Of a stretch of 11,816 nt of DNA, positions 1,870 through 11,816 are shown piece by piece. The stretch comes from Candidatus Wukongarchaeum yapensis (lineage in GTDB: Archaea > Asgardarchaeota > Wukongarchaeia > Wukongarchaeales > Wukongarchaeaceae). The translations under genes and the position numbers were made by a program. Positions within the stretch are counted from its first letter, which is position 1. The number at the start of each line of letters is the position of its first letter. Location of the stretch: assembly GCA_016840425.1 (NCBI GenBank), contig JAEOSI010000048.1:1-11816 (forward strand). The letters are read 5' to 3'. The notes under the pieces are model-generated. The model was not told the DNA's origin. It made no database searches and saw only the letters and a program-made list of their open reading frames with translations.

Positions 1870-3519
1870 ATGACGCAATTAGGCGGAGTACCCGTATTAG
1901 TACTAAGAGAAGGAGCTACTAGAACAAGAGGCAGAGATGCTCTTAATAGCAATATTATGGCTAGTAAGGTTATAGAAGAATCAATAAAAAGCTCTCTAGG
2001 CCCGATGGGCATGGATAAGATGCTTGTAAGCACTTTCGGCGATGTAGTAGTGACAAACGATGGCGCAACTATATTGAAAGAGATCGATGTTCAACACCCA
2101 GCGGCTAAATTCATAGTAGAACTGGCGAAAGTACAAGACCAAGAAACCGGGGATGGCACCACAACAGTAGTCATTATCGCAGGTGAGTTATTGAGAGCCG
2201 CTGAAGAACTTTTAGGCCTAGACATCCACCCTACGGTAATCACAGACGGCTATCGGAAAGCTGCAGAAAAAGCTTTGAAAATTTTAGACGAAATTTCAAA
2301 ACCTGTAGCATACGAAGACGATGAGATGATGAAAAAGGTTTCAATGACAGCGCTCGCGAGTAAAATGGTTGCTGAAAACCGCGAATACTTGACAGAGCTC
2401 GCGCTAAAAGCTGTGAAATCGGTGGTAGAGGAGAAAGACGGAAAACTTGTAGTAGATATTGACGACATTAAAACAGAGAAAAAGATGGGAGAAGGTGTAG
2501 AAGATACCAAGCTAGTAAGCGGGGTGGTCCTCGATAAAGAATGGGTTCATCCACGCATGTCGAAGAAAGTAGTAGATGCAAAAATAGCCCTGATTGATGC
2601 GGCGTTAGAAGTGAAGAAGACAGAGATAACTGCAAAAATAAACATAACCGACCCAGATCAGATTAAGGCTTTCATGGATGAAGAAGAATCAATGATAAAA
2701 GCGATGGTTGACAAAGTGGTCGAGACTGGGGCAAACGTCTTAGTATGCCAGAAAGGAATTGACGATGTTGCACAGCATTTTCTAGCTAAATCGGGAGTGG
2801 CTGCGGTTAGACGTGTTAAGAGGAGTGATATGGACAAACTTTCGAAGGCTACAGGAGGAAAAATCGTAAACAGTGTCGAAGAGCTTACAGCTGAAGATTT
2901 TGGAAAAGCAGGAGTTGTCGAAGAAAGGAAGGTTGGCGAAGAGAAAATGATCTTCGTAGAGGAATGCGCTAACCCGAAGTCGGTGAGTTTACTAATAAGG
3001 GGGGGTACGGATCTCGTGGTTGATGAGGTGCAACGTGGACTTCATGATGCTCTCTGTGTTATCCGGAATGTTATTCAGGAAGGGAAAGTTGTTTCAGGCG
3101 GTGGAGCCCCTGAAATGGAGCTTTCAAGAAGAATTAGAAGATATGCTGACACTTTAATCGGTAGAGAACAGTTGGCAGTGAGAGCTTTCGCTGAAGCTTT
3201 AGAAATTGTTCCGAGAACTCTAGCCGAGAACGCCGGTCTAGATCCGACAGATATAACCGTCGAACTAAGGGCGGCTCACGATGAAGGAAAATCAGACTGG
3301 GGAGTAGATGTAATGAACGGTAAAGCTTCAGATATGACAGCGTTAAACGTTTGGGAACCAGTAATAGTCAAAAAACACGCGATCAAAAGTGCTAACGAAG
3401 CAGCTGTGATGATACTTCGGATAGACGACGTAATTGCTACTAAAGAGATTGAAAGAGGAGGCGGCGGAGTTCCAGGCGGAGAAGAAGAAGAGGGACCCAT
3501 GGATATGGGTATGGATTGA
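1870..3519 (+). CDS. ths: Thermosome (group II chaperonin) subunit, paralog 1
   Basis: [47 protein letters not shown] motifs. 549 aa; acidic/Gly-Met tail GGGGVPGGEEEEGPMDMGMD. Alpha versus beta cannot be assigned by eye. Confidence 0.98.
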   Translation: MTQLGGVPVLVLREGATRTRGRDALNSNIMASKVIEESIKSSLGPMGMDKMLVSTFGDVVVTNDGATILKEIDVQHPAAKFIVELAKVQDQETGDGTTTVVIIAGELLRAAEELLGLDIHPTVITDGYRKAAEKALKILDEISKPVAYEDDEMMKKVSMTALASKMVAENREYLTELALKAVKSVVEEKDGKLVVDIDDIKTEKKMGEGVEDTKLVSGVVLDKEWVHPRMSKKVVDAKIALIDAALEVKKTEITAKINITDPDQIKAFMDEEESMIKAMVDKVVETGANVLVCQKGIDDVAQHFLAKSGVAAVRRVKRSDMDKLSKATGGKIVNSVEELTAEDFGKAGVVEERKVGEEKMIFVEECANPKSVSLLIRGGTDLVVDEVQRGLHDALCVIRNVIQEGKVVSGGGAPEMELSRRIRRYADTLIGREQLAVRAFAEALEIVPRTLAENAGLDPTDITVELRAAHDEGKSDWGVDVMNGKASDMTALNVWEPVIVKKHAIKSANEAAVMILRIDDVIATKEIERGGGGVPGGEEEEGPMDMGMD

Positions 3520-3569: not shown

Positions 3570-5213
3570 ATGACAAGTCAATTAGGAGGAGTTCCTGTAT
3601 TAATATTAAAGGAAGGAACCGGTCGGACAAGGGGTAAGGACGCGGTTGGCGCCAATATTATGGCAGCGCGCGTCGTGGCAGAGGCTGTAAGAACTGCCCT
3701 TGGACCCAGAGGTTTAGATAAGATGATGGTTGACAGTCTTGGAGATGTTAGTATAACGAACGACGGAGCAACTATTTTAGACAAAATGGACGTTCAACAT
3801 CCAGCGGCTAAGATGATGGTCCAAGTAGCGAAGACTCAGGACCAGGAGGTCGGTGATGGTACTACTACGGCTGTCGTGCTTGCAGGTGAGCTTCTAAGAA
3901 AGGCTGAAGAGCTACTGGACAAGCAGATTCACCCATCTATACTTGTTTCGGGATATAAGAGGCTTGAAAAGAAGTGTGACGAGTTGCTCGAACAAGTATC
4001 GATCAAAATCGATTCAGAAGACGTGGAAACAATGAAAAAGGCGGTGATGACCTCTTTAAACAGCAAGTCTGTTTCAGGTGTTAAAGAGTATTTTGGAGAG
4101 CTGTCTGTAAAAGCTATTAAAACCATAGTCGAAGAAAAGGACGGTAGGCTGGAAGCGGACATTGACAAGGTGAGCATTATCAAAAAGCAAGGTAAAGGAC
4201 TTGACGAAACGGAATTGGTGGACGGGATCATTTTAGACAAGGAAGTTGTTCACCCAGGGATGCCTAAGTTGGTGAAAAATGCGAAGGTTGCTTTGATTTC
4301 AGGAAACGTAGAAATTGAGAAAACTGAGTTTGATGCTGAAATTCGCATATCTTCTCCTGATCAAATGAAGGCGTTTATGGATGAAGAACGCCATTTAATC
4401 CAGGAGATGGTGGATAAAATAATAAACACGGGGGCAACCGTAGTTATTGTCCAGAAAGGAATTGATGATATCGCACAGCACGCCATGGCCAAAGCAGGTA
4501 TACTAGCAGTTAGAAGGGTAAAGAAGAGCGACATAGAAAAAATGGAAAAAGCTACCGGGGCTACAATAGTCTCAAGTATAAACGATTTGGGTCCTGAAAA
4601 TATCGGTACAGCGAACCACGTTGAAGAGGTAAAGATCGGTGAGGATAAGCTTGTTTTCGTTAGGGAATGTCCTCATGCAAAAGCTGTAAGTATATTAATC
4701 CGAGGTGGCGCTCAACACATAATAGATGAAGCTGAACGCTCCATACACGATGCTCTCTCCGTGGCAAGAGATATTTTAGAAGATGGGTATGCTGTGGCAG
4801 GCGGTGGCGCTTCATTCATCGAGCTTTCCCAGAAACTGATGAGTTATGCTGAGGGCATTAAAGGCAAAGAACAGCTTGCTATGATGGCTTTTGCTGAGGC
4901 TTTAGAGGTTATTCCGAAAACTCTGGCCGAAAACGCTGGTCTTGACCCTATAGACATTCTCGCAGAACTTAGGGCAAAACATGAGGAAGGCGGTAAAACT
5001 TATGGAATAGACGTTTTAAGCGCTAAAGTAAGAGATATGGCCGAGATAGGAGTGCTGGAACCGCTCCGCATAGTTAAACAAGCTGTCAAAAGTGCTACTG
5101 AAGCCGCAGTAATGATATTGAGGATTGACGACATCATTGCAGCAAAACATGGTGAGGCAGGAGCACCGCCAGGAGGAAGACCGCCCATTCACGGGCCGCC
5201 AGGCATATACTAA
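3570..5213 (+). CDS. ths: Thermosome (group II chaperonin) subunit, paralog 2
   Basis: [47 protein letters not shown] motifs. 547 aa; Pro/Gly tail [20 protein letters not shown]. Confidence 0.98.
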
Positions 5214-10827: not shown

Positions 10828-11451
10828 ATGTTTCCTTATGAAATAGAATCAGGGAAAAGTCGTTTTAGCCGTACTGAAATACTACACTTAGCTATCGCGA
10901 CCGTGTTATTTACTGCGGTAATAGCTTCTTGGTTAACTGAAGGTTTTACAAAATTGGAAATAACTGTCTTCGGATTAATTGCTTTTTTTGTTTTGACTAG
11001 TGCAGCTTTTATACTCCATGAAATAGCGCATAAATTTAAGGCCCAAAGTTATGGCTGTTGGAGTGAATTCCGTCTACATCCTCAAGGTGTTTTAATAACT
11101 TTAATAACTCTTGCTTTAGGTTTTGGAATAATAGCCCCAGGAGCTACAATGATTGCAGGATATCCAGATAAAGAAGGTATGGGTAAAATCGCGTTATCAG
11201 GCCCCTTAACAAACTTGTTTATGGCAGGATTTTTCCTCATCATTTACCCGATTTTTCCAACGATTGCATGGTTTGGCGCTTTCTTCAACGCGATACTGGC
11301 TATTTTTAACCTTCTTCCTTTCTTCGTACTTGACGGAAAAAAAGTGCTAGAATGGAATTCCTACGTTTGGAGCGCCGTTTTCTTCCTTGTATTATCACTA
11401 ATAATTTACATGGTAGTAGTACTACCAATTGGAAGCTTATCCGATTTATGA
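10828..11451 (+). CDS. M50 family intramembrane zinc metalloprotease (site-2 protease-like)
   Basis: HEIAH (residues 64-68), IALSGPLTN, FNLLPFFVLDG (NxxPxxxxDG) and multiple hydrophobic helices. Confidence 0.93.
   Translation: MFPYEIESGKSRFSRTEILHLAIATVLFTAVIASWLTEGFTKLEITVFGLIAFFVLTSAAFILHEIAHKFKAQSYGCWSEFRLHPQGVLITLITLALGFGIIAPGATMIAGYPDKEGMGKIALSGPLTNLFMAGFFLIIYPIFPTIAWFGAFFNAILAIFNLLPFFVLDGKKVLEWNSYVWSAVFFLVLSLIIYMVVVLPIGSLSDL
10967..10997 (+). repeat. Left arm of a perfect 31-bp long-range inverted repeat (inside the M50 CDS, codons 47-57)
   Basis: TCTTCGGATTAATTGCTTTTTTTGTTTTGAC, the exact reverse complement of 11536-11566. Confidence 0.95.
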
Positions 11452-11489
11452 TATGGGAACTGAAACCCTTCGTCTAAGCAACCAAAATT

Positions 11490-11582
11490 CTAGCAAGTCC
11501 GAAAATACCTTCTACTACACTTTTTTCCTGCAATCGTCAAAACAAAAAAAGCAATTAATCCGAAGAGACCTTCATCGGGCAC
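11490..11582 (-). CDS. Possible 30-aa single-pass membrane microprotein
   Basis: GTG...TAG frame MPDEGLFGLIAFFVLTIAGKKCSRRYFRTC, with AAAGGT 9 nt upstream. Below the ORF-track cutoff; translation is unproven. Confidence 0.25.
   Translation of the reverse strand: MPDEGLFGLIAFFVLTIAGKKCSRRYFRTC
11536..11566 (-). repeat. Right arm of the 31-bp inverted repeat (intergenic)
   Basis: GTCAAAACAAAAAAAGCAATTAATCCGAAGA on +. Homology extends over 11528-11535 versus 10998-11005 with 2 mismatches (37/39 overall). Confidence 0.95.
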
Positions 11583-11717
11583 TAAAAGCAAACCTTTAAA
11601 TCATAAAAATAATCACGTCTAATGGTTACAAACATAACACTCTAAGCCATAATTGAAAACTGTATAATAGCGTTCAATCAATAAAATTATAACATATTTC
11701 ATATTTTGATAGGGATT

Positions 11718-11816
11718 TTAAGCCCATTCTTTTAGCCAAGAACAGTTATGTTTTTCTAAAGTGAGATGCTCTTTACAAAATTTCCGACCGCAATAGTTAC
11801 AAAAACGGACAAGCCC
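11718..11816 (-). CDS. 3' end of a protein with a C-terminal AN1-type zinc finger (partial, runs off the window)
   Basis: ...GLVRFCNYCGRKFCKEHLTLEKHNCSWLKEWA* contains C-x2-C-x4-C-x2-H-x5-H-x-C, the second part of the zf-AN1 signature. Not in the ORF track. Confidence 0.8.
   Translation of the reverse strand, partial: GLVRFCNYCGRKFCKEHLTLEKHNCSWLKEWA

Follow-up and report, generated by a model that had tools for sequence, protein, structure and literature searches.

Short templated inverted insertions are a known mutational process, in which a replication or repair template switch leaves the reverse complement of a nearby sequence in the DNA. They have been treated in terms of the quasi-palindromes of Ripley and of the four-point template-switch model (Loytynoja & Goldman 2017, PMC5453318). 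FoSTeS and MMBIR are associated with filler DNA, and in prokaryotes cis-antisense RNAs and long-range 5'-3' mRNA pairing provide precedents for helices formed within or between transcripts. Two facts about archaeal RNA ends bear on how such a helix could form: tracts of U4-U7 are both a termination signal and the binding site of aCPSF1, and the minimal aCPSF1-binding terminator of Methanococcus consists of two U-tracts of at least four residues (PMC8716108).

The locus described here is an inverted repeat shared by a protease gene and its own 3' flank in Candidatus Wukongarchaeum yapensis, an Asgard archaeon. The window, by which we mean the whole stretch of DNA analyzed, is 11,816 nt long and is a complete MAG contig (C266). 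Its gene content is mostly housekeeping: two thermosome paralogues, DUF61, RNase HII, an NTPase, Trm1, FtsJ, a MarR-like HTH protein, Gar1, and an M50 metalloprotease. The two thermosome (Cpn60/TCP-1) paralogues stand in tandem at 1870-3519 and 3570-5213 (549 and 547 aa) and share stretches of 70 to 73% identical DNA at a constant offset of 1703 nt. The coordinates of the features discussed below are collected in Table 1.

Table 1. Features at the M50 end of the window, with positions counted from its first nucleotide
Feature	Position	Strand	Basis or remark
Site-2-protease-like M50 metalloprotease gene, 207 aa, HEIAH motif	10828..11451	+	ORF; PF02163
Upstream arm, source sequence inside M50, codes (V)FGLIAFFVLTSA	10967..11005	+	Repeat search, ORF; 4 variable sites in 11 assemblies, including F to L and T to V
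Convergent M50 / zf-AN1 spacer, 266 nt	11452..11717	.	Expanded in this species cluster only
Micro-ORF reading the copy in the M50 frame, 33 codons from TTG or 30 from GTG	11490..11591	-	Not conserved
Cluster of window-private variants, including C at 11552	11509..11672	.	8 private sites; also site 11584 and a T-tract indel
First T-tract after the M50 stop, candidate archaeal terminator directly 5' of the copy	11522..11527	+	T6 here, T7-T8 in other assemblies
Downstream arm, inverted 39-nt copy of M50 coding sequence	11528..11566	-	31 nt exact in this window only
3' end of convergent gene, 147-aa protein with C-terminal AN1 zinc finger	11718..11816	-	PF01428, E 1.4e-08

The M50 ORF matches Pfam PF02163 (Peptidase_M50) with 28.4 bits at a cut-off of 27.2, and many of its 189 homologues are named as members of the site-2 protease family. 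The convergent zf-AN1 gene encodes a protein of 147 aa in all related loci; here it runs on into contig C141, whose positions 1-144 overlap the end of the window with 100% identity. In many of the M50 homologues, including some from Nitrososphaeria, the protease is joined to an AN1 zinc finger (PF02163 plus PF01428), and in the one fused protein that was inspected the finger is N-terminal. In the window and in all fetched relatives the AN1 finger is instead the C-terminus of the separate 147-aa protein convergent behind M50, which by eye resembles a membrane protein; fused and separate AN1 domains are 44% identical. The fusions hint that the M50 and AN1 proteins may work together.

A repeat search of the window pairs the two 39-nt arms with 95% complementarity (37/39) across 522 nt of intervening sequence. 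Within them lies an exact core, in which 11536-11566 is the reverse complement of 10967-10997 at 31/31 nt, and the core of the copy begins 85 nt past the M50 stop codon. The search thus reproduces the coordinates of the 31-bp inverted copy (37/39 with its flank) reported in the initial annotation, and the target named there, VFGLIAFFVLT, is indeed coded by the upstream arm, seven residues ahead of HEIAH. The further claim that this is a DNA-level copy and not a chance match is borne out as well: when the window was simulated 200 times under a third-order Markov model, exact inverted matches peaked at 15.4 nt on average and never exceeded 24 nt, compared to the 31 nt observed. A scan of the whole 2.16-Mb, 277-contig genome for additional copies, permitting up to 3 mismatches, found the core only in the two arms, and the genome has few isolated exact inverted repeats of at least 22 nt with both arms inside 5 kb. 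Two other inverted structures were seen elsewhere in the MAG (G000), a near-perfect fold-back of ~0.9 kb in contig C160 (45-805 against 2051-2911) and inverted terminal copies of 144 nt in contig C208; both look like assembly artefacts or large palindromes.

The copy is real, and it is lineage-specific. It lies at the same site, in the same gene order and in a spacer of 265 to 267 nt, in all ten of the other assemblies of the species cluster (NCBI GCA_976558995, GCA_976559005, GCA_976602455, and GCA_030587555; one k141 locus from ENA; three JGI metagenomes; and two Logan loci). The closest relatives of the M50 protein are 95 to 97% identical to it, and its 90% clusters contain a dozen variants. 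Outside the species cluster the picture is different: the spacer of the relatives measures 44 to 55 nt, and no inverted repeat was found in them (G001, L011-L013, and L014). The M50 and AN1 stops are ~55 nt apart in G001, the only same-genus genome compared, and the other short-spacer loci stand at 68 to 72% protein identity. Their short spacers (44 to 52 nt outside G001) are similar among themselves, and only a short motif near 11660-11680 of the window spacer still looks, by eye, like them. Since the relatives have short spacers and no copy, parsimony makes the 266-nt spacer with its copy a derived insertion of ~215 nt in the ancestor of the species cluster. A protein search for M50 in the genome contigs found no relatives, and an alignment search of the metagenome contigs returned 80 loci, the closest at 68% identity, with no intermediate relatives among them. 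The M50 gene of G001 is itself divided over two contig ends (the end of C80 and the start of C129), with ~160 nt absent that correspond to about 10955-11113 of the window and take in the upstream arm with its T8 run. This split probably reflects a gap in the assembly rather than biology; L014, which belongs to the same species as G001, has an intact M50 gene and no inverted copy.

The copy accounts for 39 of the ~215 extra bases. The rest of the spacer has no second copy in its own genome, and against 400 genomes of the phylum it gave only chance-level, AT-rich matches of 20 to 45 nt; we rejected a mobile element or MITE on these two grounds. The spacer has no match in Rfam, either at the gathering threshold or at E<=1, and a tRNA scan of the window likewise gave no match. 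Folded alone, the spacer is no more stable than its shuffles on either strand (z-scores +0.98 and +0.55). A C/D-box sRNA was also considered and rejected, no pair of C and D boxes being found by eye.

The two positions at which the 39-nt arms fail to match in every assembly carry information about the age of the copy. At this place the gene in the window has ACT AGT (Thr-Ser) and the minus strand of the copy has ACG ATT. All 11 assemblies carry AGT in the gene, and the outgroup genes (L011 and L014) read ATT ATT, their proteins having Ile at this place. The ATT that the copy shares with the outgroups indicates that the copy preserves the ancestral Ile codon and that the gene later changed from Ile to Ser. 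The copy also contains ATT GCT (Ile-Ala), which is specific to this lineage, the outgroups having GTT GTT (Val-Val). Taken together, the two codon comparisons place the copying after the outgroup split and before the change from Ile to Ser, and make the copy a dated relic of an older state of M50.

Variation among the 11 assemblies shows how the arms have fared since. The upstream arm is variable at four of its 39 sites (10969, 10971, 10996, and 10997) and the downstream arm at three of 39 (11536, 11538, and 11552), and none of these seven substitutions forms part of a compensatory double change. Four are transversions that break a pair; the other three are transitions that leave a G.U pair on the plus-strand RNA, an outcome that has a 1 in 8 chance of arising for all three and is not significant, though not negligible. 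Watson-Crick complementarity, 37/39 in the window, stands at 36/39 in five assemblies, 34/39 in one, 33/39 in three, and 31/39 in one, and the longest exact run, 31 nt in the window, is only 13 to 16 nt in the other ten. The proportion of variable sites is 6.8 to 7.2% in the spacer, 7.7% at third and 2.4% at second codon positions of M50, and 3.4% in the AN1 gene. On this scale the downstream arm varies like the remaining spacer (7.2%), and the upstream arm is at least as variable as the M50 gene on average (5.1%). These alignments give no sign that either arm is under purifying selection, apart from the constraint usual for coding sequence.

The initial annotation had described the copy as recent or maintained, and proposed that covariation between the arms in relatives would reveal selection for pairing. 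The assemblies contradict this description and fit the refuting outcome that the annotation itself had named: they record decay at the neutral rate, with all seven substitutions uncompensated and with the arms already diverging before the sampled strains split; the same-genus genome and the relatives at 68 to 72% identity have no copy at all. In one subclade (L010, L099, L100, and L102), 6 to 7 substitutions fall within ~50 nt of the TM2-coding region (10965-11016), including an adjacent double change from ACT to GTT. This density is well over the gene average, and it may reflect a recombined patch or multinucleotide mutation.

The perfect 31/31 match is private to the window haplotype; the 10 other assemblies of the species cluster all have T, and not C, at 11552. 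This C belongs to a cluster of window-private variants extending over 165 nt, with a three-state site at 11584, compared to no private sites in the 624-nt M50 gene. The cluster stops exactly where the overlap with contig C141 starts, and it looks like a divergent haplotype or recombinant segment together with a branch of the assembly graph. In a maximum-likelihood tree (~3.6 kb, rooted on three outgroup loci) the species cluster divides into two clades, supported at 95% and 93%, and the window falls inside one of these. In the private segment, however, three sites of the window agree with the other clade, which suggests recombination. Gene conversion that keeps the arms identical was rejected as a source of the perfect match: C at 11552 is one of the private-variant cluster, and every other strain is mismatched there.

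The edges of the copy are sharp. Its minus-strand flanks, aligned to the present or the outgroup M50 sequence, score no better than shuffled flanks, and this favors a short templated patch over a large inverted duplication that has gradually decayed. We give a probability of roughly 0.7 to the reading that the repeat is a neutral scar, in which ~39 nt of M50 was copied inverted into the spacer, likely by a template switch, and then drifted. In this reading, ~39 nt of the M50 coding strand would have been copied as reverse complement into the spacer behind the gene, most likely by a replication or repair template switch that produced a templated insertion, in the ancestor of one Wukongarchaeota species cluster and within or beside the ~215-nt expansion of the spacer. 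Both arms would afterwards have drifted independently at the neutral rate. The window haplotype would have retained the original base at 11552, which would have changed in all other sampled strains, hence its 31/31 match. The initial annotation had listed a neutral template-switch scar only as a fallback; the derived state, the sharp edges and the neutral, uncompensated drift now favor it, and from them we infer both template switching as the copying mechanism and the absence of a function. The inverted orientation and the distance of ~0.5 kb fit the products of the four-point model (PMC5453318). No single four-point switch can be reconstructed, because only 39 of the ~215 bases are explained and because the outgroup spacers are too diverged to supply the pre-event sequence; no clear microhomology was seen at the junctions of the copy.

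The same edges bear on an alternative in which the copy is what remains of a larger, tail-to-tail inverted duplication of M50, with deletions leaving a 39-nt island. On the minus strand the copy keeps the M50 frame, and a spacer ~215 nt longer than that of the relatives gives room for more duplicated sequence. Against this, neither flank resembles the present or the outgroup M50, and an island of 95% similarity beside flanks of zero similarity is unlike gradual decay, so that we regard the larger duplication as unlikely. The reading preferred in the initial annotation was a cis or antisense silencer of the protease. A long-range pairing of this kind would require that read-through M50 RNA, or a plus-strand sRNA, pair with the TM2-coding part of the mRNA and lower its translation or trigger its cleavage. 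The 31-bp helix does dominate the fold predicted for a single RNA covering 10828-11600, trivially so given a perfect repeat; the predicted plus-strand duplex has -35 to -52 kcal/mol in 11/11 assemblies, and the three transitions keep their G.U pairs on that strand. The variation data speak against it, with 0 compensatory changes among 7 substitutions, 4 pair-breaking transversions, and an arm as variable as neutral spacer, and so do the sister lineages, which have the same gene pair and lack the copy, and the lack of an Rfam match. Moreover, the T6-T8 tract lies directly before the arm and, under the U-tract rule of archaeal termination, most M50 transcripts are expected to end at this candidate terminator, just ahead of the arm. 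Without covariation or constraint, and with the copy missing from sister lineages, the silencer fares poorly, and we consider functional pairing distinctly improbable. A narrower version of it, in which the young copy has been captured as a lineage-specific regulator, so that transcripts reading past the T-tract would form a 26- to 31-bp helix that throttles translation or marks the mRNA for cleavage, has in our estimate a slim chance. If it were true, the locus would hold a regulatory RNA helix born of a template switch in an Asgard archaeon, and the three transitions that keep G.U pairing would give a first indication of selection.

The minus strand of the copy allows two further readings, and the DNA itself two more. 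Co-option as a U-tract terminator of minus-strand zf-AN1 transcription draws on the sequence T7-G-T4, which the copy presents on that strand and which is invariant in 11/11 assemblies. The copy is, however, ~165 nt beyond the AN1 stop and comes after earlier T4 and T5 tracts, the relatives make do with a spacer of 44 to 55 nt, and invariance over 12 nt is uninformative at a strain identity of 96 to 98%; a terminator role is accordingly most doubtful. A micro-ORF that reads the copy in the M50 frame could encode a small membrane peptide imitating the TM2 helix of the protease, and in the window it has an acidic N-terminus, a hydrophobic core and a basic tail, with AAGGT upstream of its GTG. Other assemblies do not keep the frame: the T8 tract shifts it to an early stop in 7/11 (five of these seven also stop at codon 3 of the TTG frame), a Thr to Lys change enters the hydrophobic core in 2/11, so that the product is cut short or Lys-bearing in 9/11, and the other changes are mostly non-synonymous. 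We consider such a peptide highly improbable. The possibility, raised in the initial annotation, that the arms are an inversion substrate would imply homologous inversion of the 522-nt segment between them, as a phase switch truncating M50. The 31 bp of perfect inverted identity in the window and the fact that both recombinant frames would stay open are compatible with this. However, a single orientation, with the 207-aa M50 intact, is seen throughout the 11 assemblies (although rare variants may escape notice in contigs), the exact identity shrinks to 13 to 16 nt in 10/11, and the window has no recombinase gene or domain, which leaves a switch barely credible. The other possibility raised there, a fold-back chimera of assembly or amplification, is suggested by the position of the arm, 250 nt from the end of a MAG contig whose end overlaps another contig by 144 nt. 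It is excluded for practical purposes by 10 independent assemblies, made with different pipelines, that have the identical structure at the same place, and by arms that differ at 2 fixed positions common to all assemblies. The repeat should not, then, be labeled as a riboregulator or as a DNA switch, and an unconstrained scar is the description that we would use instead.

The result is thus mainly a negative one: the perfect inverted repeat that a protease gene shares with its 3' flank is striking, yet it proves to be an unconstrained scar. On the favored reading it documents a templated inverted insertion in an Asgard (Wukongarchaeota) genome, and the locus illustrates how a convergent spacer of 50 nt has grown five-fold in one species-level lineage.

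Compared with described systems, the element resembles in its behavior the short templated inverted insertion, a known mutational process of which it would be a further example. It shares with the template-switch insertions of Ripley and of Loytynoja & Goldman (PMC5453318) its origin as the reverse complement of a nearby sequence, here ~0.5 kb away, as well as its sharp edges, its derived state relative to outgroups and its neutral drift afterwards. It differs from them in lying within a much larger expansion of the spacer, ~215 nt, of which only 39 nt is explained, and the distance from source to copy is longer than in the human examples, where tens of bases are typical. FoSTeS and MMBIR filler DNA offers a likeness in its patchwork insertions, in which a fragment is templated inverted from a nearby locus, whereas the present locus revealed neither a deletion or rearrangement junction nor microhomology at the ends of the copy. 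With prokaryotic cis-antisense RNAs and long-range 5'-3' mRNA pairing it has in common a potential helix of 26 to 31 bp that would join a coding region to the sequence downstream of it. It departs from those elements in having a copy without covariation, without conservation above the neutral level and without a counterpart in sister lineages, and in having a likely terminator between its arms.
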